Below, one piece after another: positions 29,021 to 53,324 of a stretch of DNA of 56,880 bases. The DNA is from a virus (lineage: Duplodnaviria; Caudoviricetes): the IMG/VR virus record IMGVR_UViG_3300032285_002671, positions 1-56,880 of that record. One strand, 5' to 3'. Under the pieces are notes generated by a model. That model was not told the DNA's origin. It searched no databases and saw only the letters and a list, made by a program, of their open reading frames with translations. The position numbers and the translations under genes were made by a program. Each line of letters starts with the position of its first letter. The stretch's first letter is position 1.

Positions 29021-29098
29021 CAGTCAGGACAGGATTCGAACCTGCATGTGTGATACCCTCTGCCGAGAGACGCGATACTCCAATTACGCCACCTGACT
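29021..29098 (-). ncRNA. tRNA-like element A (non-canonical anticodon arm)
   Basis: AGTCAGG/CCTGACT acceptor, TGGCGTAATTGG D-arm, GCAGG-TTCGAAT-CCTGT T-arm; anticodon loop 4-6 nt; no CCA. Confidence 0.75.
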
Positions 29099-29104
29099 AT
29101 TTTG

Positions 29105-29200
29105 CTTTTCCGTTCACACCACCCCTTGGAGTTACAGTGACTGGTTGTTTTATACTAAGTAAATCTACCAGAGAAGCGTGTCTCGATTTACTAGTATCCG
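29105..29200 (-). ncRNA. candidate structured RNA 3
   Basis: ATACTAGTAAATC/GATTTACTTAGTAT helix, inner GAGA/TCTC, possible CTGGT/ACCAG pseudoknot; no ORF. Confidence 0.4.
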
Positions 29201-29202
29201 GG

Positions 29203-29323
29203 TAGTCAGGACAGGATTCGAACCTGTAACCAGTTTTCTAAGCTCTACGTGCAGGGTTTTCACTGCCTCGTACTGGTGTCTAATCGGACATACACAGCGT
29301 CTAACCAATTCCGCCACCTGACT
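29203..29323 (-). ncRNA. tRNA-like element B (121 nt, expanded centre)
   Basis: Same acceptor and T-arm; Leu-like D-arm TGGCGGAATTGGTTAGACGC; multi-hairpin centre. Confidence 0.75.
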
Positions 29324-29329
29324 AAGTTA

Positions 29330-29551
29330 TGAATCAATCAAAAGCACTTATTTTAAGTTCAGAAGGTCATCCATTTATTCCACACAATAATCTACAATTA
29401 GCAGTAATTTCATAAGAGATATTATCATGTTTTATGCTCGGACTTATACATGTTATCAGCCATTATAGAAGCAGGCCTATTATGAGTACTTACTAAAGGG
29501 TGGACTTCATTAGAGCCTAATCCCCAGTGGGTTTAACCAATGATTGATTCA
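29330..29551 (-). ncRNA. candidate structured RNA 2 (~220 nt)
   Basis: Perfect 11-bp terminal helix TGAATCAATCA/TGATTGATTCA; no ORF; flanked by tRNA-like elements. Confidence 0.55.
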
Positions 29552-29575
29552 ATATTTTTAAAGAACGTTTTTTTG

Positions 29576-29690
29576 TAGTCAGGACAGGACTTGAACCTGT
29601 AAACCTACTTCCCATCTTCGGTTTTTTAACTCTAATGTTTAGAATGGGTCAAACCACATTAGAGTACGTATACCATTCCGCCACCTGACT
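29576..29690 (-). ncRNA. tRNA-like element C (115 nt)
   Basis: Same acceptor; T-loop TTCAAGT; anticodon arm replaced by ACTCTAATGT/ACATTAGAGT long hairpin. Confidence 0.75.
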
Positions 29691-29695
29691 ATATT

Positions 29696-29944
29696 TTAAT
29701 ATTCATCCAACATGTTAAGTTGTTTTTTTGCCATTTTAGTATCTTCTTCAGGATTTGATTTTAGTCCCAAACTAATACTCTCACCATAACAAGAACAACT
29801 TGGATTACCTTCTTTATTAACTCCAAAAGAGATAAACCCGGCACGTACTGGATTAAAATCTTTGAATTCTGAGTGTTGTAATAATTCAGAGAACACAATA
29901 ATTAATCCTTTGTTTGTAATTACATATTTTTGTTTTAAGTACAT
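29696..29944 (-). CDS. 82 aa hypothetical phage protein
   Basis: IIVFS..QHS.F...AGFI...CYGES.SL; start moved to MYLKQK so as not to overlap element D. Confidence 0.7.
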   Translation of the reverse strand: MYLKQKYVITNKGLIIVFSELLQHSEFKDFNPVRAGFISFGVNKEGNPSCSCYGESISLGLKSNPEEDTKMAKKQLNMLDEY

Positions 29945-29966
29945 CTTTATTTTGCTATTTGTTTCG

Positions 29967-30041
29967 TAGTCAGGACAGGACTCGAACCTGCGACGCATAA
30001 GTTAAATCAATAACCCCGCTCTGCCACTGAGCTACCTGACT
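29967..30041 (-). ncRNA. tRNA-like element D (75 nt)
   Basis: Same acceptor; D-arm GCTC/GAGC; T-loop TTCGAGT; GGGTTA/TAACTT stem with 6-nt loop TTGATT. Confidence 0.7.
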
Positions 30042-30045
30042 GTTT

Positions 30046-30207
30046 TTATTTCTTTTTAAAGATATAACCTTCATAGGTTTTATCCCATACCCATCTAGTT
30101 CTACAAGTCCATACCCAAACTTGTAATCTCCACCAACGTCTTAACTTAACATGCCATGGATCTTTTTCCATTTCATCCATCAATTGTTGAACAACTTTAT
30201 TTCTCAT
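30046..30207 (-). CDS. 53 aa Trp/Arg-rich peptide
   Basis: MRNKVVQQ...WWRLQVWVW; start moved downstream of element E. Confidence 0.55.
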   Translation of the reverse strand: MRNKVVQQLMDEMEKDPWHVKLRRWWRLQVWVWTCRTRWVWDKTYEGYIFKKK

Positions 30208-30221
30208 AACATTGTGTTTAG

Positions 30222-30303
30222 TAGTCAGGACAGGTACTGCCCCTGTGTTAGTATTCATTATATTCCTAACTCCCCCACTCGTGGGAACGCTTGTTACCTG
30301 ATT
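30222..30303 (-). ncRNA. tRNA-like element E (no D-stem, GGCAGTA T-loop)
   Basis: AATCAGG/CCTGACT acceptor; ACAGG-GGCAGTA-CCTGT; two internal hairpins. Confidence 0.6.
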
Positions 30304-30530
30304 ATTTGAGGATGAGAAGTCCTCCGTGTTGTATAGTTACAATAGTATCGCTTATGTACCATACGGTAGCTCTATCTGCCTCAATTCCTTTCTCAATGGA
30401 ACAACACTTGCAACTTTTGAATACCCCCAGAGTTGCCAACTGTGCTAACCTACGCTTTAGCTGATTACTTTGAGCATTGTCAAGAGGCTTATCAGGTCTT
30501 CGTTCCATACTCGTGCACAAGTAGAGGACT
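30304..30530 (-). ncRNA. candidate structured RNA 1 with kissing-loop pseudoknot
   Basis: Helices GTGTTG/CAACAC, GCAACT/AGTTGC, CTGAT/ATCAG; complementary loops TGAGAA and TTCTCA. Confidence 0.6.
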
Positions 30531-30576
30531 AATATTTTTTATAATTAACATCTTTTTATTTATTAATTTTATAATA

Positions 30577-30608
30577 TAAATATAAGATGAATATTTTATA
30601 AAGCCAAA
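30577..30608 (-). promoter_or_regulatory. promoter driving tRNA-like/ncRNA operon
   Basis: TTTG-N20-TATATTTA with no plausible protein start downstream. Confidence 0.75.
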
Positions 30609-30612
30609 TCTA

Positions 30613-30879
30613 TTATTTTTTAGATAAATAAGTTAAAGTACTTATATCCTCTTGAGTTAATGACCTCTTATTACCCCATATTGTAGTAAGAATATCTAAT
30701 AATTCTGTTTCATTATGTGTTTGAGGATTTCCATTAAATAATTCAAACTCTTTAACTTCAATAGGTACATAACCTTCATCGTATAATTCATCAACTAATT
30801 CTTGTTTATCACTTGATGACAACCCCCAAAGTACATCATCTATGTCTACATCTACTGATACTGATACTGATCCTCTCAT
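30613..30879 (-). CDS. hypothetical protein
   Basis: 88 aa ORF. Confidence 0.65.
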   Translation of the reverse strand: MRGSVSVSVDVDIDDVLWGLSSSDKQELVDELYDEGYVPIEVKEFELFNGNPQTHNETELLDILTTIWGNKRSLTQEDISTLTYLSKK

Positions 30880-30881
30880 AT

Positions 30882-31394
30882 TTAAAATTTAATTAAGTTT
30901 CCACATTTAATTTCTTTAATACCATCTATTTTTATAGTTCTAACTACAACATCATAATCTAGACCTTGATTGGTATTTTTACTTGGTTTTGATTTGAATT
31001 TATTAATTGTATCAATTTGTTCTGATGTAGCCTCAATACCGTCAATTAAATATTTTTCTACTTTAGCATCATTACAAGCGAAAAGTAAATATTTACAATT
31101 AGTATCTGACTTTTTAGCTACAATTGAACCATTAAAACCATCATTTACTTTTACAAACCAATTTTCTTTAGATTGGAAATTTGCTTCTTTTCCTTCTCTA
31201 GTTCTAGCATTATTAACCATGTTTTGGTAATTAGCATTTAATAATACTCTATAATTAACTATTTTAGTTACAATACAATCCTTAAGTGGATTATTTGTTT
31301 TGAGTAGTTTTTGTTCTACTTCAGCTAATACTCTAGCTGCTTTAGCTCTACCTCCATCGTTAATTAATTTGGTAATAACTTCTAATTTATCCAT
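30882..31394 (-). CDS. hypothetical protein
   Basis: 170 aa; promoter 31422-31453. Confidence 0.7.
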   Translation of the reverse strand: MDKLEVITKLINDGGRAKAARVLAEVEQKLLKTNNPLKDCIVTKIVNYRVLLNANYQNMVNNARTREGKEANFQSKENWFVKVNDGFNGSIVAKKSDTNCKYLLFACNDAKVEKYLIDGIEATSEQIDTINKFKSKPSKNTNQGLDYDVVVRTIKIDGIKEIKCGNLIKF

Positions 31395-31440
31395 AACCTT
31401 TTATTTATTAATTTTATAATATAAATATAAGATGAATTTT

Positions 31441-32157
31441 TTAATTCTCCAAATCTATTATTTTATTTTCTAAACTTAGAATTGCATATTTCCATTTAAA
31501 ACCACCTGCTGTTTTTTGTTTTCCTAAACAACAAGCACGAATATCTCCTTTTATTTTTTTATTTATTTCTTTAATAGAAACCCATTCTTGAATAAATTCA
31601 TCTTGTAAATTATATTGAAGGACAGGTTTGGTAGATTTAACCCAAGATTTTCTATTTTTAATACTTATTTTAAGATTTTCTATATGTTGAGAGCTAAATA
31701 TTTTACCTTTTTTAGTTCTACTCATTTTTTCTTTAACTTCTTCTGAGAATTTAGTACCTTTATTTCTACTAATACCCTTGTTTGACTGGCTTATTTTTTG
31801 TCTTAATTCAGGAGTCATAAAATTTTTAGGTTTGGATTTATTTTTAATTTTTAATACCCAATCTATTTTAATTTTTTCATATGTTCTATTTGATATTATA
31901 TATCGGTTGTTTTTATTTTTTTGTTTTCCAATAGACATCAAAAATAAAGCATACCATAACTTTTCATTATTAGGATAAATTTCTGTTAATAATCGGTGAC
32001 ATAGAAAATGCTCTCTTGCTGTTAATTCTACTAAATTTATTTTATCATTATTACCTCCCATACAACGAGGAATAATATGATGTTTTTCTTTATATCCTTC
32101 TAATTGACGTGATTTAGCTCTTTCTATAATTTGATTATAAATTTTTTGATAGTTCAT
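31441..32157 (-). CDS. HNH homing endonuclease with NUMOD3/NUMOD1 domains
   Basis: EKHHIIPRCMGG...NLVELTAREHFLCHRLL; KTAGGFKWKY. Confidence 0.9.
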   Translation of the reverse strand: MNYQKIYNQIIERAKSRQLEGYKEKHHIIPRCMGGNNDKINLVELTAREHFLCHRLLTEIYPNNEKLWYALFLMSIGKQKNKNNRYIISNRTYEKIKIDWVLKIKNKSKPKNFMTPELRQKISQSNKGISRNKGTKFSEEVKEKMSRTKKGKIFSSQHIENLKISIKNRKSWVKSTKPVLQYNLQDEFIQEWVSIKEINKKIKGDIRACCLGKQKTAGGFKWKYAILSLENKIIDLEN

Positions 32158-32231
32158 AATTTATTATTTCTAATAAATATATGATTTCCTATAAAATCTA
32201 ACCTATATTAAATATTTGCAATTTAGATTAG

Positions 32232-33329
32232 TTATTCAATGGAATTTCTATCTATTAATATAACTTTAGGAAAACGAGGTACCGGTATTTCTGTGGTTGT
32301 TAAACCAAAATATCGTACTGTTGCTTCAAGTCCAATAAGACTTTCTTTTTTTAACCATAATTCTTCTAAATATGAATGTTCTCCATTTACTGCTGATTCA
32401 AAATTATCAAATACTAATTTACCTACTTTTCCTGATAATTTTCCTACTCCTTCTTTAACATCTCGAATTATAAACTCAGCATCATCAAAAACTTTATTTT
32501 TTAATAAAAAATTTGAGCGTTTATTTTCATATTTCCCATCTAATATTCTTATTATTTGTCCTTCAAATCCTTCAGATATGTATTTATCATGATAAATTTG
32601 AATTTCATTTTCATTATATATTAAATCTATATTTGATATAACACATGTATCAGGAAATTCTTTATTATCATACATTTCTTTTAAAGAATTATATCTAGAT
32701 TGAAATATTTCATTACTAGACGCTATATCATATATAAAATATTTAATGTATTCTTTAGACTCAACTAAATCCTGAGGTTCAGGTTTTAATTTACGGACAC
32801 AACTTATAATTTTATTAAAATCAAACTCTTTATCCGTGTAAAGTTCTCCATCTAAAATAATATCAGGATGTTTTTCAAAAAACGATTCAAGTGATTTTAA
32901 TATATGAGGAGCAGATAGAAGTTCTTTACCGTTTCTACTAAACATACCTCCTGAATGTATGATACATCTAACACCATCATATTTTTTCTGAGATGCTACT
33001 GGGTATTTTATTTTATCTTTATAATCTTCCCATTTTTTAGCTAACATTGGTTTGAAATAAATTGGTGTATCAATTTCACTAATACTTTCAAACGAACCTG
33101 TTTCCATTCGTTTACGATGCATAGCTGTTGCTTCGGCTAATGCTTGTTGTTCTGCTGTAGTAGCGTTTTTCTTACCTACATTTTTTGCTTCGCAACACGT
33201 CCATTCAGATACTACTTTAAGACCATCAGTGTAACCTGATATTGTTCTGAAGCATGCTCCTTCAATTTCAATTTCCCATTGAAGTATTTTTTTATTAACA
33301 CTTCGTTTATATAATGTTTTTAATTTCAT
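32232..33329 (-). CDS. ATP-dependent DNA ligase
   Basis: KPMLA, KYDGVR, DGELY, EGQIIR, RS..LLK, PRFP; promoter 33350-33381. Confidence 0.9.
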   Translation of the reverse strand: MKLKTLYKRSVNKKILQWEIEIEGACFRTISGYTDGLKVVSEWTCCEAKNVGKKNATTAEQQALAEATAMHRKRMETGSFESISEIDTPIYFKPMLAKKWEDYKDKIKYPVASQKKYDGVRCIIHSGGMFSRNGKELLSAPHILKSLESFFEKHPDIILDGELYTDKEFDFNKIISCVRKLKPEPQDLVESKEYIKYFIYDIASSNEIFQSRYNSLKEMYDNKEFPDTCVISNIDLIYNENEIQIYHDKYISEGFEGQIIRILDGKYENKRSNFLLKNKVFDDAEFIIRDVKEGVGKLSGKVGKLVFDNFESAVNGEHSYLEELWLKKESLIGLEATVRYFGLTTTEIPVPRFPKVILIDRNSIE

Positions 33330-33384
33330 AACCTTTTAATTTTATAATATAAAAATAAGGAGAATATTTTATGGAGCCAAATCT

Positions 33385-33477
33385 TTATAATAAAGAAGCA
33401 TTTGTAAGGATAGATGCTAAAGTTATAATTAGTACAATTAAAACTGTTGAAATGATAATGATGTCTTTTTTATTCAT
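33385..33477 (-). CDS. 30 aa membrane peptide
   Basis: MNKKDIIIISTVLIVLIITLASILTNASLL; own promoter 33500-33531. Confidence 0.5.
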   Translation of the reverse strand: MNKKDIIIISTVLIVLIITLASILTNASLL

Positions 33478-33527
33478 AATATATTAGTTAATTATTGTTT
33501 AAATATAAGAAAGATTATTTTGATAAC

Positions 33528-34313
33528 CTAACTAATTTTATATCTCCAAATAAAATTACCTGCTGTTTTGCTAACTCCTCTAGCACAATTTTCAATAGAA
33601 CTTCTACTAATGTTGGTATTTATAGAAGCTTCATAAATACTATCCCATTCTTTTAATGAAATAAAATCAGAATTATATTGAATAACTTTTTTATATTTGA
33701 TATTTCGACTCCCTGGTGGAAATTTTTTTCCTTTATTATGGTTAGTATATCCTAATTTTCTACCTGATTTATTATATGTTACTTTATTTATTATTTTATT
33801 TGAATCTATATATTTCCAGTTAAACCCACCAGATGATTTTGTTTCTTCTCTAGCGCAACTTTCAATACCGCCCTTATTTATTTGTAAATATTTACTTGCT
33901 TCTGTAGGTGAATTAAAAGTTTTAATATATTCTCCTTGTAAAGTATATTGTTCTATTTGTTTTCTATTATCAAATCTTTCTTTACTTTGTATAGAATGTA
34001 TTTTATTCTTGAAATTTTCATATATTCTAGAACTAGTAGCATGTCGTTTTTGATTTCCTAATCCATTAATCATACACCACATAGCATAATACATTTTATT
34101 TTCTTGAGGTGTTCCTTTATATATTTCAACTAATAATCTATGACATATATAATGTTCTTTAGGTGTCAATAATACTAAATTATGTTTATTGTTTGAACCT
34201 CCTAAACTTTTAGGAATAATATGATGTTTTTCAAATAGTATTCCTTTATTCTTTTTTCTATTTAATTTTTGAGTATTACTTATAATACTGTTGTAAATTT
34301 TTTGATAATCCAT
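33528..34313 (-). CDS. HNH homing endonuclease with two NUMOD1 domains
   Basis: EKHHIIPKSLGG..NLVLLTPKEHYICHRLL; repeated IEQY..S..EA..IE.CAR..GF.W.Y. Confidence 0.9.
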   Translation of the reverse strand: MDYQKIYNSIISNTQKLNRKKNKGILFEKHHIIPKSLGGSNNKHNLVLLTPKEHYICHRLLVEIYKGTPQENKMYYAMWCMINGLGNQKRHATSSRIYENFKNKIHSIQSKERFDNRKQIEQYTLQGEYIKTFNSPTEASKYLQINKGGIESCAREETKSSGGFNWKYIDSNKIINKVTYNKSGRKLGYTNHNKGKKFPPGSRNIKYKKVIQYNSDFISLKEWDSIYEASINTNISRSSIENCARGVSKTAGNFIWRYKIS

Positions 34314-34394
34314 AATATTTTATTTACTATAAATACCATAAATTATCAAAATATTTATATTCTTAACCCATAATATTAAATATTCCTATTAAGT

Positions 34395-34814: not shown

Positions 34815-34815
34815 A

Positions 34816-35211: not shown

Positions 35212-35216
35212 TGTTT

Positions 35217-35603: not shown

Positions 35604-35606
35604 AAT

Positions 35607-36314
35607 TTAAAAACTTGAACTTCCTTTTTTATTTCCACCACTACCATCTATTTTTTCTTCATGATGATCTTCAGGTAATGTTAATTTAGCAATTGGTTGC
35701 TTACTCATTATATTGATAATTTCAGTTATTGAATATGGTTGTATTTTATTTCCATCTACACCCACATCCATTGCCTTACCTTTAGATAATTTCTTATCTG
35801 AAGGTAAGTGGACGTGTCCATGTAAATGGATAACACCATCATTCATATTATGCCAACTAGCAATTGGATAATGCATTAATACAAAATCAAAATCTCCTTT
35901 ATATATTGGTGTACCCGGATTAATTGATACTGATAATCTTAAATACTCATTTACTGAACTAAATAAGCGTTGTATATTATCTCTATTACGTTCAATATGA
36001 TGATCGTGGTTACCTAATATTAGGTGAATGTTTTTACAATATATTCTATTTCTAAACTCTTCAATATTTTCAAACCCACCAAATGACCAATCACCCAAAT
36101 GAAATAATATATCATCCTCACCAACTATACTATTAATAGATTCAACAATATAATCATTCATATGATCTAGAGATTTAAAATCTCTTGTATTATATGTTGG
36201 AATATCACCATTAGCATCTCTCCACTTAGTTGTACTACGACATATATTACTATGTCCATAGTGTGTATCTGAAGTAAAATATACTCTTTGATTTGGTGTT
36301 ATTTTAATTTTCAT
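35607..36314 (-). CDS. calcineurin-like metallophosphoesterase
   Basis: SDTHYGH, LGD, GNHD, HYP, HGHVH; promoter 36319-36350. Confidence 0.9.
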   Translation of the reverse strand: MKIKITPNQRVYFTSDTHYGHSNICRSTTKWRDANGDIPTYNTRDFKSLDHMNDYIVESINSIVGEDDILFHLGDWSFGGFENIEEFRNRIYCKNIHLILGNHDHHIERNRDNIQRLFSSVNEYLRLSVSINPGTPIYKGDFDFVLMHYPIASWHNMNDGVIHLHGHVHLPSDKKLSKGKAMDVGVDGNKIQPYSITEIINIMSKQPIAKLTLPEDHHEEKIDGSGGNKKGSSSF

Positions 36315-36356
36315 AATATAAAGATAAAATAAAATTTTTAAATAGCCAAATCTATT

Positions 36357-37499
36357 TTAATGACTATCTCCTACGTCATGTTTTTCTCCATAAATTAAAT
36401 AATCTGGATTGATTACTTTAGCTACCAAATGACGATTACCACATACACTTTTAATAACAACACCTTCGTGTGGTACTTTAGTTCCTGGAATACCATCATA
36501 TAAAAATTTAGTTTGCAATTCTTGATACCAAGGTCCAACATATAATTCTTCTACGTGAGGTAAATTAAATACATTTGCAATTACGTGTTTAGTACGAATT
36601 GTATTTTGATACACTCCATCCTCAACAAAGTCAAATCCTGTAAATTGAATATCTTTTAATCCATAATCATAATTCTTTTGAATACCAGGACCATAAATCT
36701 CTCCATATAATATTACTCCATTGCCTATTACTTTTGGTCCGTGTAATTTAACATATGTCCATAACTTATCTTTAATATCATACTTATCAGCAATAGTTCT
36801 CCAAACATCTGTATCATAGAATCCTTGTGAATCGGAACCCTTCTCTACGTTGTGTGAACCATAAACGTATTCATATTCAATCCACTCATCAGCCAACCTG
36901 AAGAACTTCTTTACTTTATCCCAAAATGATAATCCTCTTTTCTTAACAATACCATAACGAGCATTAGTACCATGAATCTTACGGGTGATTTGAACAACAT
37001 CCAACCCACTAATAAACATTCCAGTAACGTTTTTAATGTTAGGGAATTTGTAATACACTCCAAAGTTTGGATTCTGATGATACTTAATCTTACGTCCTGA
37101 TGCTAATTGTACTTGTACAGCTGGTGGTTCGTATTTGAAAATATTCATTACTTCCATCATATCCTTACCTTCTGTGTAAGTATTTATATTACCTTTAGGT
37201 ATATATTTTAAAGGTATAATCAAACACTCAGAATATACTCCTCTTAACTTAACGGTACGTACACGTTGACCTTTACGTAAGTAATTAGTTACATTCATTG
37301 AATCAGATAATTCTTGAGGAATGACAGCATCTGTAGTTGCTACTACAACCAAACCGCCCTCAGAGTATTGTCCTTTTTGTATGATACAATTCCATCCTCC
37401 GATAACTGCTTGTTCGATGTTATCAGCTCCTGGGATTGCTTTAATTTCATTAATTTTTGCTACGTAGCAAACACTATTAGCGTTCTCGAGTTTATTCAT
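36357..37499 (-). CDS. RNA ligase (DRB0094 / Rnl5-like, N-terminal OB fold)
   Basis: IPGADNIE..GW, KLRGVYSE, KIHGTN, GEIYG, EGVV, KVINPDY. Confidence 0.85.
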   Translation of the reverse strand: MNKLENANSVCYVAKINEIKAIPGADNIEQAVIGGWNCIIQKGQYSEGGLVVVATTDAVIPQELSDSMNVTNYLRKGQRVRTVKLRGVYSECLIIPLKYIPKGNINTYTEGKDMMEVMNIFKYEPPAVQVQLASGRKIKYHQNPNFGVYYKFPNIKNVTGMFISGLDVVQITRKIHGTNARYGIVKKRGLSFWDKVKKFFRLADEWIEYEYVYGSHNVEKGSDSQGFYDTDVWRTIADKYDIKDKLWTYVKLHGPKVIGNGVILYGEIYGPGIQKNYDYGLKDIQFTGFDFVEDGVYQNTIRTKHVIANVFNLPHVEELYVGPWYQELQTKFLYDGIPGTKVPHEGVVIKSVCGNRHLVAKVINPDYLIYGEKHDVGDSH

Positions 37500-41555: not shown

Positions 41556-42674
41556 TTAATTTGAATAACCCGTTCGTACTATATAAAAATTAGTTGAACC
41601 ACCACTAGTCAATACTCCGGTAGTTGTTGATTGTGTTCCTGTTATAGTTGATCTTAAATCAGATGTAGTAGCTCTGATATTAGTATGTTCTGTTTGTGTA
41701 AGTATTCTATAGTTAGACATAGACCATACTTTTCCATTTCGCTTTTGAATTTGTAAGTAAATATCAGATACAGTAAAATTACTATTTGAATTTAAATCAT
41801 ATCTAAAATAATCAGGACCTACTATAGTACGTTTTGATAATATTAAACTACTATTATCAGAAGCATCTGCTGCTTGAGGTGATGGTATAGATAAAGTATC
41901 TAGCGTTAATTTCCATTCAGTTCCAGCAGGTGATGTCCTTGATATAGAGTAATCTCCAGTTAAGTTAGTCACATAAGATGTATCTAAAGTCCATGCTGAT
42001 GTAGTTACTACACCCAATTCACTTGCTTGTAATGAGTAGCTAGTTTGTCCAGGTCGTTTCCAAACAACTGCTAATCCTTCTCCACCACCATATTCTTGCA
42101 TTCTAGCTTTAAATGTATATTGTGTTCCAGCAGTTAATGTTATGTTTCCATATTGATAACCACTCATACCATGACCGCCGTAATACGATGTTACTAATGT
42201 TCCGTTTATAATTAAATCAGCACCATCATCTGAATTAATACCAAAACTATATGTTCCTGATACAGCAGGAGTAAATGTACCTGATACTTCTGTAGAGAAA
42301 AATTCTCCATTGTTTGGCACTGTCGCTCCAGCGTTTGATATTAATTGCCAATAAGTCCAGTTAAGTGATGTACTTGCTGCTATATTGCCACTCCATCTTA
42401 AAACAGTATTACTATAAGCAGTATTAAAACACTTATCCATTTCTGTTACACTAGTAGGGTAAGCAGCATATTGACCTGTATTTCCGTTTCCGTTATGTGT
42501 TGAATATACTTTAACAGTTGTACTACTTACAGTAGTGTTAGTTCGTTTATAGAGCATCACTCTTATACCATTTACCCCAGTATTATTAATACCATACACT
42601 TTTCCTGTTTGAGAGAAAGTTTGAGCATTAACAATAGATGTTATAAATAAAAATATAAATAATAGTTTTCTCAT
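41556..42674 (-). CDS. secreted PA14-domain plus dockerin-like protein
   Basis: Signal peptide VNA-Q; GTYSFGINSDDGADL, GGHG, EYGGG (PA14); DLNSNSNFTVSD EF-hand-like loop. Confidence 0.75.
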   Translation of the reverse strand: MRKLLFIFLFITSIVNAQTFSQTGKVYGINNTGVNGIRVMLYKRTNTTVSSTTVKVYSTHNGNGNTGQYAAYPTSVTEMDKCFNTAYSNTVLRWSGNIAASTSLNWTYWQLISNAGATVPNNGEFFSTEVSGTFTPAVSGTYSFGINSDDGADLIINGTLVTSYYGGHGMSGYQYGNITLTAGTQYTFKARMQEYGGGEGLAVVWKRPGQTSYSLQASELGVVTTSAWTLDTSYVTNLTGDYSISRTSPAGTEWKLTLDTLSIPSPQAADASDNSSLILSKRTIVGPDYFRYDLNSNSNFTVSDIYLQIQKRNGKVWSMSNYRILTQTEHTNIRATTSDLRSTITGTQSTTTGVLTSGGSTNFYIVRTGYSN

Positions 42675-45385: not shown

Positions 45386-47266
45386 TTATAAAATTGTTCC
45401 GTTTAATACTTTAGTTGTACCTAATACTTTACCATCACATTCAACTACTGCTAAATATGCACTTGGAGGTAAAGAACTTAAGTTAGCTGTGTATCTGTAT
45501 TGTCCTTTAGGCATTTTACCATCATATATGCTTGATACTTTATTACCATTCATATCAACAAAATATACTGAAGCATATGCTGCTGATGGAATGTTAAATT
45601 GTACTGCTACTACACCTGAAGTTGGATTAGGATAAACCATAATGTTAATTTCACCACTCATAGTAGCTACGTTTTTAGTTTTAAATACTTCAACTCTACC
45701 ATCTGTAGGTCTGATGCTTAAGTCTTTAGCTGTTTCATTACCAACGAATTTACGAGTTACATATAATGGTGAACCATTCCAATCTGATTTAGGCTTTTTA
45801 GCATAGAACTGTAATATAACAGCTTCTTGTCCGTCTTTAATTTTATTTTCTTCACTCATATCAACTCCACCCCATTCTACAACACCGTTATTAGCGTTAG
45901 TAAATGACATCCATTTAGAAGTAGCTTCTTTTGTAGTTACTCCTTTAAATTCTAATAAATCAGTATCGTATTTCATTGCTAACTGGACAGCCCCTAGGGT
46001 CTGTCCGTTAGTCAATACTTTTACAGGAATGTTTACTAAATTACCTTCTTCAACGTTTAATGTAGGTAAATTAACTTCCATTTCGTTTAAGTTAGCATAG
46101 TAATCAGTTGTTTGGTCTATAATAAAGTTAGGAGCATTTAATGGATTAGTTATCTTAATTGGAACTAATCTAGCCATGTGATATCCAGTTTCGTTTACGT
46201 CACCTGTTGCTAACACATATACTGTAATTGAATCAGTACCGGTTCTAATTATATATGAATAATTAGCTGTTCCTGGAAGTAACGTGCTATAGTTAATCAT
46301 ACTATCTTGAGTGATTGTGTTATAATCAGCTTGTGTAAAGAATCTTACATCAGGAACTGAGAATTTAGTAAATCTACCAGCGATTCTATTAAAGATTGTA
46401 TATACGTCTGATATTGAAATACCACCGTTATTGTTTACGTCTGATGTATGGAAATCAAATGCTTTTGGACGTTCAATACCCATTACAAATCTATTTACTT
46501 TCTGAGCATCTGCTGTAGTAACTACGTTACCTAATGTTAAAGTATCACCTTGTACTTCAATTTTACAAGTCCAATATGTAGTATCTACAATAGGGCTAAA
46601 TCCAAATTTACCACTTAAATCTGTTGTATCAACTGATATTAATGACCAGTTACCACCAGTTTTTGGTTGTTTCCATAAACCAACTAGTAGATTCTTAGTT
46701 CCAGTACCTGTTACGTTTTTAAATGAACCTGAGAAATTAATACTTGGTCTAACAAATATACCACCTGCGTTAAATTGTGTTAATGTTGTATCTTTACCAA
46801 TGTTTGTAGAAGCTATTGTTGGGTAAGTATTATCAAATGCTAACGCGTTTATTTTTGTTAAATATTGAAAGGTTGATGCAGTACTATGTTTAAAATTAAT
46901 ATTGAATAATTCACCTGATGGATATGTGTAATTTAAATCAGGTCCGTTATATACTGATGTGATTACAATTTTATCACCACTCACGTAGTATTGTAGGTAA
47001 TGAAGACTTGAATCAGCAGTTGTTAATGATACTATAGGGTTAGTAAACGCTACTGCATCATAGGTAATTTTAAATTGTAAAGCGGTAATTTTCGTTGCTG
47101 TTGTGTTATTGTAACATAATTTAACATTAGTTTCATTAGCAACAGATGAACCAACACTGTATGTTGGTTTGATAATAATTGAGTTTCCGTTAGGAGTTGG
47201 ACATGTTTGTGCTGTGACTAGCAGTGTCGTTGTAATCAACGATAGTAACAATAGTATTCTTTTCAT
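45386..47266 (-). CDS. cohesin-dockerin scaffold protein with T9SS C-terminal sorting domain
   Basis: Signal peptide VTA-Q; two cohesin-like domains (ALQFKITYD, AVQLAMKYDTDLLEF); DVNNNGGISISD dockerin loop; VYPNP..LPPSAYL..K CTD; start MKRILL. Confidence 0.8.
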   Translation of the reverse strand: MKRILLLLSLITTTLLVTAQTCPTPNGNSIIIKPTYSVGSSVANETNVKLCYNNTTATKITALQFKITYDAVAFTNPIVSLTTADSSLHYLQYYVSGDKIVITSVYNGPDLNYTYPSGELFNINFKHSTASTFQYLTKINALAFDNTYPTIASTNIGKDTTLTQFNAGGIFVRPSINFSGSFKNVTGTGTKNLLVGLWKQPKTGGNWSLISVDTTDLSGKFGFSPIVDTTYWTCKIEVQGDTLTLGNVVTTADAQKVNRFVMGIERPKAFDFHTSDVNNNGGISISDVYTIFNRIAGRFTKFSVPDVRFFTQADYNTITQDSMINYSTLLPGTANYSYIIRTGTDSITVYVLATGDVNETGYHMARLVPIKITNPLNAPNFIIDQTTDYYANLNEMEVNLPTLNVEEGNLVNIPVKVLTNGQTLGAVQLAMKYDTDLLEFKGVTTKEATSKWMSFTNANNGVVEWGGVDMSEENKIKDGQEAVILQFYAKKPKSDWNGSPLYVTRKFVGNETAKDLSIRPTDGRVEVFKTKNVATMSGEINIMVYPNPTSGVVAVQFNIPSAAYASVYFVDMNGNKVSSIYDGKMPKGQYRYTANLSSLPPSAYLAVVECDGKVLGTTKVLNGTIL

Positions 47267-47334
47267 AGTAAATAATTTTTTTATAAAGAGCAACCATATA
47301 AAAAAACCAAGATACTAGAATAGTATCGCTTGAC

Positions 47335-47342
47335 TATAAATA
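47335..47342 (-). promoter_or_regulatory. putative late promoter TATTTATA
   Basis: Same 8-mer shortly upstream of starts at 4374, 18167, 19168, 34328 and 41545; common by chance in AT-rich DNA. Confidence 0.4.
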
Positions 47343-47789: not shown

Positions 47790-47792
47790 AAC

Positions 47793-49031
47793 TTAATTAC
47801 TTAAAGGTGCTTTAATACTTGGGTGTGATTGATATCCTTCTAAAGTGAAATCTGTATTTACATAAGTAAAGATACCACCACCAACTCTCATTTGATTATT
47901 TTCATTAATGATTAGTTTCGGTAATGGAAATGGTTCTCTTGTACGGTTTGGAATTTTATATGCTTCATAATACTCAGACATACCTCCACCGAACGGCATT
48001 AGTTCATTAATGGCTTTGTTGTATAAACGACGACTCATTGCATCTTTTAACATTATCTCTCTTTCTTCTGGTGTATATTTTCTTCCGATTTGTTCTTTAG
48101 CTTGCTCAATATGATTTGAGTAAAGGTGTACGTCTCCTAAGTTTCCAATCAATTCATCTGGAACCATATTCACTTCTTTAGCGATAATCTCTAATAATAA
48201 TCCATAAGATGCTATATTAAAAGGAAGTCCTAAGAATGTATCTACGCTTCTTTGATTCCACATTAAAGAGATTGCTCGTGTTGGGATGTTATGGTAATCT
48301 AAAAATCCATGATGTCTGTTGTCATAATCAACAGTCCCATCTCTAGTTCTTTTTCTCATTAAATCTAATCTTTCATCTAAACTCAACTCTCTTGTATAAC
48401 ACTGGAATGAAAAATGACAAGGTGGAAGTACCATTTGGTCTAATTCACCTACATTCCAAGCATTAACCATTAATCGTCTTGAGTCTGGATTTGTTTTAAG
48501 GTCATTGATTAGGCTTGTGATTTGGTCTATTTCAATTAATTGCATATTAGATTCAAAATCATTATTCATGACACTTCCCATTTTGAACCAACTTCTCCAC
48601 TGTGCACCATAAATCGGTCCTAATTCACCCCACGTCTTAGCAAACTCATCATCTGTTTTGATTTTGTTGATGAATTCTTCTTGTGTTAATGGTTCTTCAG
48701 GGTATTTTAAATGAATAATATTACCATTTGAATCAATTTCACTAATTTTCTTTTTGTAATTAGAAAAGGAATCTCCTACCCAAATATGACAATCATTATC
48801 AACTAAATACTTAATATTAGTATCGCCACGTAAAAACCATAATAGTTCAGTTACGATACCTTTCATATACATCTTTTTGCATGTTAATAATGGAAACCCA
48901 TCTGACATTTTATGTCTTATTTGTCTTCCAAAAACAGATAATGTACTACCATTTCGAGTTTGTTTCTCTACACCATTTTCTAAAATATCCTTCAATAAGT
49001 TGTTATATTGAGGATCTATATTATTTTTCAT
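47793..49031 (-). CDS. thyA: thymidylate synthase
   Basis: ELLWFLRG, GPIYGAQWR, PDSRR, LPPCH, QRSVD.FLGLPFNIASY, GDVHLY. Confidence 0.95.
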   Translation of the reverse strand: MKNNIDPQYNNLLKDILENGVEKQTRNGSTLSVFGRQIRHKMSDGFPLLTCKKMYMKGIVTELLWFLRGDTNIKYLVDNDCHIWVGDSFSNYKKKISEIDSNGNIIHLKYPEEPLTQEEFINKIKTDDEFAKTWGELGPIYGAQWRSWFKMGSVMNNDFESNMQLIEIDQITSLINDLKTNPDSRRLMVNAWNVGELDQMVLPPCHFSFQCYTRELSLDERLDLMRKRTRDGTVDYDNRHHGFLDYHNIPTRAISLMWNQRSVDTFLGLPFNIASYGLLLEIIAKEVNMVPDELIGNLGDVHLYSNHIEQAKEQIGRKYTPEEREIMLKDAMSRRLYNKAINELMPFGGGMSEYYEAYKIPNRTREPFPLPKLIINENNQMRVGGGIFTYVNTDFTLEGYQSHPSIKAPLSN

Positions 49032-49032
49032 A

Positions 49033-49596
49033 CTATATTGATTTTAAATAAAGTTCATACAATTGTTCTTCGGTTAGATACGCATACTTAGTGTACAATT
49101 CATTTTGTTCATTTACACATTCCCACATCCATTTATCTTCAACCCAAATAGACATAAAATCTTTTGCAATCCATTTAGCAAAATTAATAGCTGCTTCTTT
49201 TTCAAAAGCATCTTCCCAAGATGGAGGTGCTGATTCTGACATAAATTCTGGTTCGCAATTGGATATACCAATATCAATACCTGCTTGAATATTACAATTT
49301 TCAGGGCTCGTACAACATTCATCATCGCAATGCTCCTTTGTAACTGGGCAAGTATAGCTACTAGATGATTCTTTATACTCCTTTGCTTCATGAAAGAAGT
49401 AGCCCGAATGAATCTTACCCCCAATTCCAAATATCATATCATCTGCTTCCCAATGATATACTTTCTTTTCTTCATTTATGGATGTGATAGTTACATACTT
49501 TAAACCAGCCTCTTCTTTATCATAATCAAGAGCTTCTAGTTTATCACCCACTTTAAATTTTATCTCGTTATTCATATGTTTCAGTTTTAGTATCAC
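49033..49596 (-). CDS. hypothetical multi-domain protein with Cys cluster
   Basis: CPVT..CDDECC...C. Confidence 0.6.
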   Translation of the reverse strand: MILKLKHMNNEIKFKVGDKLEALDYDKEEAGLKYVTITSINEEKKVYHWEADDMIFGIGGKIHSGYFFHEAKEYKESSSSYTCPVTKEHCDDECCTSPENCNIQAGIDIGISNCEPEFMSESAPPSWEDAFEKEAAINFAKWIAKDFMSIWVEDKWMWECVNEQNELYTKYAYLTEEQLYELYLKSI

Positions 49597-49987
49597 CTAT
49601 TGATGCTGTTCTAATTTTTGTTGGAACTCCCATTTTATCAAGCTCTTTAGATTTCGATGCAGGATCTAATTCATCCATAGAATCACATACGTATCTGTTT
49701 GGTTTTGAATTATCAAACCAGTAATGCATTCGTTCATCTAAAGTTAGCATTCGTTCTTCAATACTCAATTTAATCTTTTGCATCGGTTCTGGTTCTGATC
49801 TTTTAGGAACTACTCTTGTAAGAGGTTCTCTGTTAAACGTATATCCTGTAATATCTACGTATTTAAGTAATTCTTTATCACCTTCTACTGTGATGCCATA
49901 GTCTTTACCTCCAATTTTAATCATTGCAGTTTTGTATCCTAGCTTATTGGCAAGCCATTTTATAATTAGTATCGGTATTCTTTTCAT
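49568..49987 (-). CDS. hypothetical protein sharing a motif with ThyA insertions
   Basis: LTLDER...LDKMGVPTK. Confidence 0.6.
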   Translation of the reverse strand: MKRIPILIIKWLANKLGYKTAMIKIGGKDYGITVEGDKELLKYVDITGYTFNREPLTRVVPKRSEPEPMQKIKLSIEERMLTLDERMHYWFDNSKPNRYVCDSMDELDPASKSKELDKMGVPTKIRTASIGDTKTETYE

Positions 49988-49990
49988 AAC

Positions 49991-50104
49991 TTATTTTAAA
50001 TATTTAGTTTTAGTTTTTTCACAATATATACAATACATTATTTTACAATAACCGTCATAGCTAAACACTTTCCAGGTATGAATTCCTAAAGAACATTTAT
50101 TCAT
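49991..50104 (-). CDS. 37 aa Zn-ribbon peptide
   Basis: CSLGIHTW...CIYC; ATGA coupling; below track cutoff. Confidence 0.55.
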   Translation of the reverse strand: MNKCSLGIHTWKVFSYDGYCKIMYCIYCEKTKTKYLK

Positions 50105-50427
50105 ATTGTTGTTGTATCTATATTTTCAAATTCCTTTTTAAGTTCTAAGTATGTTTGATAGCGATTTTGTTTTAGTTTCTTTTTCCAATTTTCGACTTTA
50201 TCCATACGTGCTTTATATTCTTCGTCCGTCTCTTCAACGAAGCGAATGATTTCGGCTTTATGATATCCGTCCTCAAATTCATGTTCATCAACGAAATAAA
50301 AGTTTAATATATCACTATCTTCTAGATTAAGATGCTTGATATCTTTCCATGTAAAATGATAATCACTTTTCTCGTTAAAGATTTGACGTGATACTTTAAT
50401 CTTATTAGTATTGTTTATGTTGTTCAT
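50101..50427 (-). CDS. hypothetical protein
   Basis: ETDEEY..R...Y.ELKKEFE pattern. Confidence 0.65.
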   Translation of the reverse strand: MNNINNTNKIKVSRQIFNEKSDYHFTWKDIKHLNLEDSDILNFYFVDEHEFEDGYHKAEIIRFVEETDEEYKARMDKVENWKKKLKQNRYQTYLELKKEFENIDTTTI

Positions 50428-50433
50428 ATCTTT

Positions 50434-50622
50434 TTAATTTAAGACCCATTGCAGCATTTTGATTCGATCTGCAGTAGTCGTAATATCCATAAGCATATCT
50501 ATATTTTGTTCTGAGTCAATACCTCCATATCGCTCTTTCATTTGAATCCTTTCTTCATGTATTGAATCTAATTCAAGTTGTAAGGTTTCTATCTTTTTAA
50601 GTATTTGTTCTTCAGTTTTCAT
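50434..50622 (-). CDS. hypothetical protein
   Basis: 62 aa in operon. Confidence 0.6.
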   Translation of the reverse strand: MKTEEQILKKIETLQLELDSIHEERIQMKERYGGIDSEQNIDMLMDITTTADRIKMLQWVLN

Positions 50623-50626
50623 GATC

Positions 50627-50824
50627 TTATTTATTTTCTTCTTTAAAGATATTATACAAACTATCTACTTGGTCTCGACATTCTTTACAAGCTGTTTCAA
50701 TCGCTATTAATCGTTTCTCTATTTCGGGAGATATATTTTCTCTTCTAATCAATTCAACATTCCTAAAGATTCTTGATGTGGAATGTGTATTATTATGAGC
50801 AATCATTAAAACGTTTTTATTCAT
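50627..50824 (-). CDS. hypothetical protein
   Basis: 65 aa in operon. Confidence 0.6.
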   Translation of the reverse strand: MNKNVLMIAHNNTHSTSRIFRNVELIRRENISPEIEKRLIAIETACKECRDQVDSLYNIFKEENK

Positions 50825-50828
50825 ACTT

Positions 50829-51206
50829 TTATATTGTTTTAAGTAATTGAAGAATTGCTTCAGAAGAATAAGACATTTTTGCTAGTTTAATAGCCGTTAT
50901 AACTTGCTCTTCAGTATAAGTTTTTTCTTCTTTTAGCTCTGTATTAGTTTCTCCCGGTTTGATTAGTCTAGCATATTCATTATCTATTTTACTATATACG
51001 CCCTCATTATTAGTTCCATAATGAAAATTATATACTATCTCAAACTCTACATCCCTACCACTATCTTCATCATCCAAAAAATAGTACTTTAAGTATTTTG
51101 GATCGATTAAATATAAACCACCTAAACAAGGCATACCTGTAAAATCTAAACCACTTGGTTCCTCAACATACCATTTTTGATTTTCTTTTTTTAATCTTCC
51201 TTTCAT
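50829..51206 (-). CDS. hypothetical protein
   Basis: 125 aa in operon. Confidence 0.6.
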   Translation of the reverse strand: MKGRLKKENQKWYVEEPSGLDFTGMPCLGGLYLIDPKYLKYYFLDDEDSGRDVEFEIVYNFHYGTNNEGVYSKIDNEYARLIKPGETNTELKEEKTYTEEQVITAIKLAKMSYSSEAILQLLKTI

Positions 51207-51439
51207 AGTAATCTCCCTTCTCCATTTTCATACCATTTTTCAACACTACCATACTTGGCAATCATACTATTCGTTTCAGCTTCAACTTTACGATATGCAT
51301 CTCTCCACTTTTGTTTAGTTTCTTCATCAGCATCTTTACTGTATGTGCCAGATTGAATCTGTAATTCATCTATTTCATTATCTGTTAAATGAAATGGGTT
51401 TTTTGGTTTAAAGTTTGTTTTCATAATTATCACACTCAT
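51203..51439 (-). CDS. hypothetical protein
   Basis: 78 aa in operon. Confidence 0.6.
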   Translation of the reverse strand: MSVIIMKTNFKPKNPFHLTDNEIDELQIQSGTYSKDADEETKQKWRDAYRKVEAETNSMIAKYGSVEKWYENGEGRLL

Positions 51440-51629
51440 TTAAAAAATTCCTTTTGATATCATACTGACCTATAAATTCGTTTACAGTATCTGTATGGAA
51501 TCCAACACCCACTAATAATCCTTTTATGGCATCAGATATCTCTTCCATATTCGCATCCCATGGAAGTTCTGCTGTTAGCTTTCTTCCGTGAAGTTCAATT
51601 GATATGATTGTTGGTTTTTCTTTTTTCAT
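51408..51629 (-). CDS. hypothetical protein
   Basis: 73 aa in operon. Confidence 0.6.
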   Translation of the reverse strand: MKKEKPTIISIELHGRKLTAELPWDANMEEISDAIKGLLVGVGFHTDTVNEFIGQYDIKRNFLNECDNYENKL

Positions 51630-51856
51630 TTTTCACCTCCGTGTGTTTCGTTTTGAAATTTTGTATATAATTGTTGAATCATATTTACCTCATTTGGATG
51701 AGATTTATCATAAATTCTACACCAATTTGCAAATTCTAACATTCTTTCATATTCCATTTCTTTGGCTTCTTTTAACAATTCATCAATATACTTTTGTTGT
51801 ACTGATACAAATGGGGTAAGCCAATTTACTGCGTATTCTACTGCTGTTTGTTTCAT
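51626..51856 (-). CDS. hypothetical phage protein
   Basis: MKQTAVE...AKEME pattern. Confidence 0.65.
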   Translation of the reverse strand: MKQTAVEYAVNWLTPFVSVQQKYIDELLKEAKEMEYERMLEFANWCRIYDKSHPNEVNMIQQLYTKFQNETHGGEK

Positions 51857-52416
51857 ATCAAATATTTTAATATTTTTTTCTTAATACCACTTTGTTTTAT
51901 TCCTTCATTAGAACGAGGAGTTAATACGAAATTACTTAATCCATGTCCATCATTAAACTTAGGAGACATATTCAAATCATCTACGGCTACCCAATGTGTT
52001 ATTTCTGGATTGAGCTCTAAATACTTTTCAATTTCTAAGATTCTTGCTTTACGAGACCATCCTTTATAATTAAACAATGATGCTGTTAATGAATCAAACT
52101 CTATAAGATTAGGAGTTTTAGCAATAGGTCTTTTAATAATACCTTGCAATGTATAGTAATCTCCTAGCTCTTCTACAGTCGCATGAAGCTTCCAATCAGA
52201 ACTAACTACAATCTCTGCTCCCGTTTCTGTTAAGATATCATTTAATACTTTAATTGCTTTAGTATCAAAGTCATCAAATCTATACTCAACCGGAGGTTCT
52301 ATATCCATTGATATGGGATTGTCTTTGGTATAAGTTTGTTTTCTTTTCTTATACCTACTACCCCAGTTGCCCCATAAGCATATTACTCCATCGTTGTCTA
52401 AGAATATAACTTTCAT
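51853..52416 (-). CDS. HAD-family phosphatase (Swiss-army-knife RNA-repair type)
   Basis: IFLDNDGVI, VVSSDWK, R..EI..YL, WVAVDD. Confidence 0.8.
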   Translation of the reverse strand: MKVIFLDNDGVICLWGNWGSRYKKRKQTYTKDNPISMDIEPPVEYRFDDFDTKAIKVLNDILTETGAEIVVSSDWKLHATVEELGDYYTLQGIIKRPIAKTPNLIEFDSLTASLFNYKGWSRKARILEIEKYLELNPEITHWVAVDDLNMSPKFNDGHGLSNFVLTPRSNEGIKQSGIKKKILKYLI

Positions 52417-52417
52417 T

Positions 52418-52615
52418 TTATTTTTGTTTATCTAATTCTTTTAATAAAGAATCTGCATACTTAACAGCTATTTCATCAAGTGCTGGCTGAGTAGCTCTTA
52501 CACCTGCAAGTAGCCCTTGTAAAGCTAAACCAGCAAAGTATTCTCTTTTGGTTAATCCTTTTTGAATAGCCCTTTCACCTTCATAAGCAAATGCTCCTTT
52601 TTCTCCGTTTTCCAT
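52418..52615 (-). CDS. hypothetical phage protein
   Basis: GLTKREYFAGLALQGLLA..AV.YAD.LL; promoter 52634-52665. Confidence 0.7.
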   Translation of the reverse strand: MENGEKGAFAYEGERAIQKGLTKREYFAGLALQGLLAGVRATQPALDEIAVKYADSLLKELDKQK

Positions 52616-52669
52616 ATTATTTATTATTATATTTAAAGATAAGATAATTTTTTAAAATAGCCAAATCTT

Positions 52670-53233
52670 TTATAATACTTCATCAATAACACCTAATTTT
52701 AAGGCTTGTTTAGAATCAATATACCAATCGTGTTTCATATCATATATAGATTGTAACTTATCCTTTGATATCTTTGTATTTTCTAAAGTATGTTCTTCAA
52801 TCATCTTTTGTAAACGTTTTGCTTCGATTACTTCATCCTCCATATCTTTAACAGTACCTCTTACACCACCACTTACTTGATGATAAAGATAAGTTGATTT
52901 TTCATATCCAATTCTTCTATGCCCAGCAATCGCAATTAAGAATCCGCAACTCATTGCACAACCTGTTACGATTGTATAAATGGGTGTATTTGATTTTTCC
53001 ATAATTGAAAGAAGTCCAAAACATTGATATACTTGCCCACCATACGAATCGATATATATTTTAATTGGTTTAGGTTGGTATATAAAATCATACAATGCAG
53101 ATATCTTTTTAATTTCAAAATCCGATTCATTAATTTGAATGATTGCTTTTGTTAGTTTATTAATCGAATCTTGATCAACTTGACTGGCTAAATATAAATT
53201 TCTATCTAGCGGCTTTGGTATTTGTACTTCCAT
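52670..53233 (-). CDS. ClpP-like protease subunit
   Basis: IYIDSYGG, G.AMSCG, HQ catalytic His, DWY...AL.LG.ID. Confidence 0.85.
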   Translation of the reverse strand: MEVQIPKPLDRNLYLASQVDQDSINKLTKAIIQINESDFEIKKISALYDFIYQPKPIKIYIDSYGGQVYQCFGLLSIMEKSNTPIYTIVTGCAMSCGFLIAIAGHRRIGYEKSTYLYHQVSGGVRGTVKDMEDEVIEAKRLQKMIEEHTLENTKISKDKLQSIYDMKHDWYIDSKQALKLGVIDEVL

Positions 53234-53251
53234 AATTATTTTTAATTTTTG

Positions 53252-53324
53252 AACTCAGGACAGGATTCGAACCTGCATCTACCTAGCTACAATGCTAGGG
53301 CGTTACCAATTACGCTACCTGAGT
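53252..53324 (-). ncRNA. tRNA-like element F (73 nt)
   Basis: ACTCAGG/CCTGAGT acceptor (compensatory change relative to A-D), same T-arm, CCTAGC/GCTAGG stem with 6-nt loop ATTGTA; no CCA. Confidence 0.75.

Follow-up and report, generated by a model that had tools for sequence, protein, structure and literature searches.

Bacteriophages T4 and T5 encode stable RNAs that resemble transfer RNAs (tRNAs) and that have remained without a function for about fifty years, each of them a single gene. RNA1 and RNA2 of T5 are entered in the annotation as 'tRNA-like stable RNA with unknown functions' (NC_005859, 30501-30644 and 32959-33083). Both are located in the tRNA region of the phage on the tRNA strand, both have ends that close an acceptor-like stem beside a canonical T-arm, and neither can decode. 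In RNA1 the D-arm is of the Leu type, and several hairpins make up a centre of ~70 nucleotides (nt). The T4 species 1 RNA (rnaC, 139 nt, with rnaD beside it) follows the T4 tRNA genes at the end of their cluster. It is closed by an acceptor-like stem, has a canonical T-arm and carries long hairpins where the D and anticodon arms would be; a 2022 paper still calls its function unknown (PMC9697503). Here we describe six tRNA-like elements, A to F, in a window of 56,880 bases that comprises the entire IMG/VR virus record IMGVR_UViG_3300032285_002671 (Duplodnaviria; Caudoviricetes), an uncultured lake phage estimated to be ~36% complete. With moderate confidence we read them as five intact members and one decayed member of a large family of phage RNAs that do not decode, that are built on the frame of a bacterial class-II leucine tRNA (tRNA-Leu) and that are probably processed by tRNA maturation enzymes. 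With its single frame, many centres and deep variation, so large a family from the environment opens the old question to comparative analysis and simple tests.

All six elements lie on the minus strand, with the positions and lengths given in a preliminary description of the window. The acceptor and T-arm are common to all, with U-A at position 3-70. A, B, C, D and F have a 7-base-pair (bp) acceptor and a 5-bp T-stem with a 7-nt loop of the UUCRANY type, a combination not present in E. Three elements are of a 'stub' type. Element A (29021-29098, 78 nt) has a Leu-type D-arm, discriminator G73 and, when folded with the frame fixed, a centre consisting of a 5-bp stem, a 4-nt loop and an 11-nt linker; it scores 37.9 bits with the Rfam tRNA model and 65.1 bits with R1, a covariance model built from 75 family members. 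Element D (29967-30041, 75 nt; Rfam 45.4 bits, R1 54.6 bits, ARAGORN '???') has a class-I-like D-arm and A73. Element F (53252-53324, 73 nt; Rfam 50.9 bits, R1 60.9 bits) has U73 and an acceptor pair C2-G71, a swap relative to G2-C71 in the others that had been pointed out earlier and is real. With the frame again fixed, the centres of D and F each fold into a 6-bp stem with a 6-nt loop.

Elements B and C are of a 'cargo' type. B (29203-29323, 121 nt) has a Leu-type D-arm and A73 and matches the Rfam tRNA model at 37.3 bits with a 59-nt insert and R1 at 66.1 bits; three helices form in its centre of ~69 nt in a fold constrained in the same way. C (29576-29690, 115 nt; R1 61.5 bits) has the T-loop UUCAAGU and A73 and is called neither by Rfam nor by ARAGORN. 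A 10-bp helix stands at the position of its anticodon arm, and the loop of this helix is complementary to two stretches downstream, which could possibly form pseudoknots. Element E (30222-30303, 82 nt, A73; R1 20 bits, E = 0.009) is read as a decayed copy, the only one of the six that looks so. It retains the T-stem and the 3' acceptor strand, its D-arm is lost, its T-loop GGCAGUA is non-consensus, the acceptor has an A2.C71 mismatch, and its 3' half overlaps the start of a possible open reading frame (ORF; 30046-30258). The D-arm classes proposed in the preliminary description hold for every element except F, whose D-arm with a 4-bp stem and an 8-nt loop is class-I-like and not Leu-like. None of the six encodes CCA; the tails after position 72 are GCUA (A), ACCC (B), ACAA (C), ACGA (D), ACUA (E) and UCAA (F). 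Folds and tails bear out that the centres are unrelated and that both a 7-nt anticodon loop and an encoded CCA are missing.

Standard tRNA tools recognize these elements in part. In the window ARAGORN calls only A, as Cys(gca), and D and F, each with a 2-nt 'anticodon'. The Rfam gathering score for tRNA (29 bits) is passed by A, D, F and B, and C and E give no match. The Rfam score derives from the frame and says nothing on decoding. The R1 scores of A, B, C, D and F (55-66 bits) are high by construction, as these five were in the training set and E was not; the rest of the window contains no further R1 match below E = 0.2. A 19-nt block formed by T-arm and acceptor is present in five copies in the window, all on one strand, and in none in the reversed control. 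Such an arrangement far exceeds what chance would give.

A credible 5-bp stem with a 7-nt loop was found in no member of the family. ARAGORN nevertheless reports an anticodon for 45 of 164 members, or for 115 when introns are allowed, and an RNA ligase gene is present in the window. Such calls would be expected from real decoding tRNAs that have odd loops of 4-6 or 8-9 nt or that lose an intron through a phage nuclease and the ligase, and dying tRNA pseudogenes may be considered as well. However, the calls on the 164 members involve many different anticodons and mismatched stems, and ten shuffles of the centres gave 30-41 calls, or 96-111 with introns allowed. Since the call rate on shuffled centres is nearly equal, the Cys(gca) call on A is at chance level. 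In a subfamily found in 21 contigs ARAGORN even predicts tRNA-Leu(aag) in 19 of the 21 loci, but covariation backs a different helix: a variant (L069) has three compensatory pair changes in the centre helix that break the anticodon stem proposed by ARAGORN. The pseudogene version conflicts with a frame that is conserved, with compensatory changes, in at least 119 contigs. We attach hardly any credence to decoding tRNAs or pseudogenes; that the elements are non-decoding RNAs, as had been proposed, is supported both by the shuffling results and by the covarying helix. Gene finders label them as tRNAs with arbitrary or undetermined anticodons, by which counts of phage tRNAs and suppressor-like tRNAs are inflated.

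The family extends far beyond the window. The 19-nt block occurs in at least 119 IMG/VR contigs, in at least 175 copies, and almost all copies carry an identical 5' acceptor strand, mostly together with a Leu-type D-arm. R1 gives 213 matches at E ≤ 0.001 in 100 of these loci, and ordinary tRNAs are among the lower-scoring matches. The length of whole elements ranges from 55 to 192 nt (median ~101), and the difference lies in the centres between the two halves of the frame. Three genomes that are 99-100% complete (163-271 kb) contain 2, 4 and 4 copies, and 14 copies are located within 6 kb of one 62-kb fragment. Some members have an extra hairpin in the D-loop (L240 5736-5843; L258 2369-2457); the frame tolerates a second insert site. 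No member was found in GenBank phages, where a 1.6-kb query region had no match, and element B matched 82 records in the T-arm only, at no more than 31% query coverage, with no record at 80% or above. Rfam recognizes the family solely as generic tRNA. No account of it was found in literature searches; Fremin et al. 2023 describe five tRNA-like candidate RNAs from IMG/VR (PMC10690425) that may overlap with it.

Judged by its sequence, the frame is that of a bacterial class-II tRNA-Leu, with the acceptor stem, a D-arm with G18G19, the T-arm and mostly A73. When the block was scanned in one genome per prokaryote species, 82 copies were found. Genuine tRNA-Leu genes account for 43 of these (Opitutaceae, Patescibacteria, Planctomycetota and others); they share the T-arm, have a closely related acceptor and encode CCA completely or partially. 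About 20 copies are family-type elements on short contigs, mostly binned with Chitinophagia, Flavobacterium, Sediminibacterium and Saprospiraceae, and these are taken for phage DNA. Seven of the eight top-scoring non-family R1 matches that were fetched from five such Bacteroidota bins are tRNA-Leu genes with a D-arm as in the family. These genes (L231-L237) end in N73-C-A-A or N73-C-U-A instead of CCA, and the same tail is found in phage tRNAs and in the family. Among 162 family members A73 is present in 144, U8 in 156, A14 in 141 and GG in the D-loop in 145; the T-loop UUCRARU is present in all 162, partly owing to how members were found. Of the six elements in the window, B, C, D and E carry A73. 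According to a study on bacterial leucyl-tRNA synthetase (LeuRS), the anticodon arm is dispensable for this enzyme and the determinants are A73 and the core contacts U8-A14, G18-U55 and G19-C56 (PMC2377443). Because the family keeps exactly these determinants, the A73-bearing members may be leucylated by LeuRS.

Selection on pairing is most clearly seen in the subfamily mentioned above, which was picked through two loop sequences and not through helices, and which comprises 17 distinct sequences in the 21 contigs. Over the cloverleaf frame and one centre helix, 98.6% of 357 cells are paired and 9 of 21 pairs are changed on both sides, the compensatory changes being distributed over acceptor, D, T and the centre helix. 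None of 500 shuffles matched this result, and slid controls showed 24-48% pairing and at most two two-sided changes. In the same subfamily a centre of 36 nt is nearly invariant across the 21 contigs while the frame varies. Compensatory changes also occur in further clusters of centres, and the folding energies of centres are below those of mononucleotide shuffles (mean z -0.66, n = 134). At Rfam gathering scores no known RNA motif was detected in the centres of 15 loci. Pairing of centres with their own flanks was considered as well, but own flanks pair no better than foreign flanks, and a cis-antisense role is not supported.

When the loci of this subfamily are compared in pairs, nucleotide similarity is restricted to the element and breaks off exactly at both of its ends in 186 of the 210 pairs. 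Such sharp borders would also be produced if the role of the elements were at the DNA level, with two constant blocks of 25-30 bp providing transferable homology at which phages recombine and exchange small genes and RNA centres, and with the RNA shape as an inherited by-product. The array A-E indeed lies in a hyperplastic stretch where only an ATPase gene is common to relatives (63-67% identity), and homing-endonuclease-like genes are nearby. Many contigs assembled from four freshwater DNA runs join both frame blocks around other centres, with loose ends at the element borders. However, the acceptor, D and T stems change in a compensatory manner, which indicates selection on RNA pairing and not on DNA identity, and the flanks, with U(-1) and N73-C-A/U-A, are those of real tRNAs. 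Recombination may moreover be a consequence of repeated conserved genes and not their purpose. A DNA-level role is considered very unlikely.

The likeness to real tRNAs in the flanks is quantitative. In 15 related loci the family is found among 101 Rfam tRNA matches, two phage transfer-messenger RNAs (tmRNAs) and one group I intron, and many members sit inside pure tRNA clusters. U(-1), which bacterial RNase P prefers, precedes 134 of the 162 family members and, in the same loci, 164 of 235 phage tRNAs of the canonical kind. C74 is present in 214 of the 235 canonical tRNAs; in the 162-member family set it was imposed by the search pattern, and in a listing made without the C74 condition nearly all family copies have it. 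ACAA and ACTA are the most frequent tails both in the family and in canonical phage tRNAs, as in the tRNA-Leu genes of Bacteroidota. In two related phages a tmRNA is encoded beside the tRNA cluster (L080 4975-5349; L017 7609-8193), and in L017 the tmRNA match directly adjoins that to a group I intron (97.8 bits). A gene for a CCA-adding enzyme was found in one of five related phage records and not in the window.

The elements are also tightly packed between ORFs. The upstream ORF stops within -2 to +9 nt of the element in ~60 of 160 members, and in 55 of 160 the next ORF starts 10-29 nt downstream. A scan of 28700-30700 for promoters and terminators found none between A and E on the minus strand, and promoter-like sites were fewer than in shuffles, although the sigma-70-type consensus that was used does not cover Bacteroidota promoters. 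Element F lies exactly between an SPFH/Band-7 gene (53333-54232) and a ClpP-like gene (52670-53233), both on the minus strand and identified by Pfam. An SPFH homologue was found at 39 loci, some on contigs of 200-320 kb, and only in the three closest (89-96% protein identity) does an element directly follow the gene; a fourth SPFH locus has a partial match of 24.8 bits at the end of the locus. The SPFH gene itself is widespread in large freshwater phages. The F orthologues keep C2-G71, U73 and the D-arm, and both pair 7-66 and the T-stem have changed in a compensatory way. Their centre stem is unrelated in sequence and still consists of 6 bp with a 4-6-nt loop, and one of them has a hairpin insert in the D-loop. 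A metagenome scan for further F orthologues gave 12 stretches, three of which were true and all of the type already found. In the F lineage only a helix is kept.

These properties are what would be expected if the elements were pure message punctuation, in which the tRNA shape serves only to let RNase P and RNase Z separate neighbouring genes on a transcript, the released RNA being waste and its centre filler. The dense packing between same-strand ORFs, the position of F between two conserved genes with a centre reduced to a helix, and the lack of sigma-70-type signals between A and E, a weak test for this host, all fit with this, and the t-elements of plant mitochondria provide a precedent (PMC1920247). 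Punctuation does not explain, however, why one centre is nearly invariant in 21 contigs despite a varying frame and has three compensatory pairs in one of its helices, or why compensatory changes occur in other centre clusters as well. With a median of ~101 nt and lengths up to 192 nt the elements would be costly as filler, and the many members in pure tRNA clusters have no ORF to separate. Punctuation as the whole role is unlikely. The earlier suggestion of processing tags agrees with the tight ORF packing and the tRNA-like flanks, but it is not the whole story, since some centres are more conserved than the frame.

In view of the above, we favour the reading of a family of non-decoding RNAs on a tRNA-Leu frame, and from the sequences we infer how its members would be transcribed, processed, kept stable and charged, and how any action in trans could arise. 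The sequences directly show the family with its frame and covariation, the missing decoding arm, the tRNA-like flanks and the conservation of part of the centres. The elements would be co-transcribed with neighbouring small genes or with true phage tRNAs. The 5' end would be cut by host RNase P and the 3' end trimmed by the host tRNA 3'-end enzymes, exactly as for the real tRNAs of the phage, after which CCA would be added. The expected product is a stable L-shaped RNA, and the same cuts would separate the flanking messages. In A, D and F the codon-reading part would be replaced by a plain capped helix, the stub, of which only the pairing is kept. In B and C the frame would display a folded module of 65-70 nt, the cargo, to a partner. 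The A73 members B-E would probably also satisfy the leucylation rules of LeuRS.

Several observations weigh against this reading. No RNA run was present among the 20 runs listed for positions 27500-32500 of the window. No orthologues of A-E were found; five relatives located through the ATPase gene share that gene alone. A (G73) and F (U73) fail the discriminator rule for leucine, and the near-invariant sequence of the acceptor and T-arm, which is not demanded by RNase P, RNase Z or LeuRS, is left unexplained by the model. The evidence for partners of the centres is likewise negative where it was sought: centres showed no excess pairing with their own 45-nt flanks over the flanks of other elements (z 0.06 and 0.006, n = 146), and the invariant linker of one subfamily had no exact complement in five candidate host bins, where matches with one mismatch were about as frequent as in a reversed-pattern control. 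Finally, the centre sequence in the F lineage varies freely and pairing alone is kept. This free change means that a 'cargo' is not general and that the function of A, D and F may reside in the frame by itself.

The favoured reading can be extended. In engineered 'tRNA scaffolds' for RNA expression a chosen RNA is inserted in place of the anticodon arm, and phages of freshwater Bacteroidota might run a natural version of such a display. The Leu frame would then provide processing, stability and perhaps leucylation, and swappable folded modules such as hairpins, pseudoknots and invariant loops would bind host or phage proteins, for example as anti-defence RNA decoys or take-over factors. The constant frame would permit the exchange of modules by recombination. 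We regard this extension as tentative and doubtful as it stands. Should the centres indeed bind proteins, nature would have its own equivalent of the laboratory tRNA scaffold, and the family would represent a novel class of RNA effectors encoded by phages.

Another way in which the RNAs could act in trans is as decoys or sponges for factors that recognize the top half of tRNA, such as toxins acting on the acceptor end or elbow, LeuRS or EF-Tu, so that multiple copies soak up an attacker and spare the real tRNAs. The constant part consists of just the acceptor end, the elbow and A73, and copy numbers reach 14 in the 62-kb fragment. In addition, genes for a calcineurin-like metallophosphoesterase (35607-36314, minus strand) and, adjoining it, an RNA ligase with an OB-fold domain (36357-37499, minus strand) are located 6-7 kb away. 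Together the two enzymes may heal and seal RNA ends, the kind of pair with which phages counter defences that cut tRNAs, and they would then indicate that the phage invests in RNA damage control. However, the lack of an anticodon loop excludes the known anticodon nucleases, and the earlier proposal of decoys for enzymes of the PrrC, RloC or PARIS type is not supported, as these would have no loop to cut. A decoy role also leaves the conserved, structured and diverse centres unexplained, and searches that did not include PADLOC revealed no gene for defence or counter-defence in linkage with the elements. A decoy function is quite unlikely.

The window has a G+C content of ~28%, its ORFs are almost all on the minus strand, and it encodes a T4-type baseplate wedge, thymidylate synthase, DNA ligase and RNA ligase. 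The stretch is present in DNA runs labelled freshwater or lake metagenomes. A 635-residue protein encoded at 45386-47293 (minus strand) has a cohesin-like domain and a C-terminal sorting domain for type-IX secretion (Por_Secre_tail, 30.3 bits, cut-off 27). Such sorting domains are typical of Bacteroidota, and this domain hints at a Bacteroidota host. A gene for a PA14-domain protein lies near it (41556-42674, minus strand). Three homing-endonuclease-like genes are present on the minus strand at 31441-32157 (NUMOD3), 33528-34313 (HNH and NUMOD1) and 13114-14394 (HNH), and two of the three are directly upstream of the array A-E; the tRNA regions of T4 and T5 also contain homing-endonuclease-like genes. 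No canonical tRNA was seen in the window, which represents ~36% of the genome.

Within the array, the non-coding spacer between B and A contains a long hairpin (29152-29197, minus strand) that may be on the same transcript as the elements; for the whole spacer the folding z-score is only -1.45, which is weak. The 252-nt spacer between C and B (29324-29575, minus strand) has no convincing ORF of at least 20 residues and folds no better than shuffles (z -0.41). A search pattern for the centre of C had no match in viral contigs. Directly upstream of E, at 30469-30489 on the minus strand, the abiF RNA motif is matched weakly and in part (24.9 bits, cut-off 37, E = 0.16); this match was set aside as probably due to chance.

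How do these elements relate to known tRNA-shaped RNAs? The source of the frame, tRNA-Leu as found in Opitutaceae, Patescibacteria and Bacteroidota bins, shares with them acceptor pairs 4-7 / 66-69, the D-arm, the T-arm, A73 and the 3' tail. The elements differ from it in having no anticodon stem-loop and a variable arm that has been replaced or expanded, and they cannot decode. The mascRNA of MALAT1 is a tRNA-shaped piece in a longer transcript that is cut by RNase P and RNase Z. The same description applies to the plant mitochondrial t-elements (PMC1920247), and for the phage elements such processing is predicted. Both of these mimics are single and degenerate and belong to eukaryotic organelles or nuclei, in contrast to a multi-copy phage family with conserved centres that often sits within real tRNA clusters.

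tmRNA and the Y RNA YrlA, like the elements, combine the top half of a tRNA with a large non-tRNA insert. Unlike tmRNA, the elements have neither G3.U70 nor a tag reading frame, and ARAGORN and Rfam made no tmRNA call in the window. YrlA-like mimicry of the tRNA elbow, which had been suggested for the elements, can be dismissed: the ends of YrlA close a Ro-binding stem whereas those of the elements close the acceptor, Rfam gave no YrlA or Y RNA match at E ≤ 10 in 28500-30800, and a Ro60/TROVE gene was found in none of six phage records searched (the window and five related records).

This leads back to T4 and T5. The T-arm sequence of T5 RNA2 is identical to that of the family, and the position, closing stem and centres of T5 RNA1, RNA2 and T4 species 1 correspond to what was found here. 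The two T5 RNAs differ from the family in being single genes of a phage with E. coli as host, with their own acceptor sequences and without a multi-copy array on one constant frame; T4 species 1 differs in the absence of a D-arm, in its interrupted acceptor helix and in its single copy. R1 gives 27.4 bits for T5 RNA2, 13.3 bits for T5 RNA1 and 18.7 bits for T4 rnaC, which is the range of ordinary tRNAs in those loci. T5 RNA1 and RNA2 and T4 species 1 are the closest known RNAs to the family, the likeness being one of structure and position, with R1 scores at the level of ordinary tRNAs. The family is real, strongly selected and very widespread, and it is a variant of an old kind, the phage tRNA-like stable RNA.

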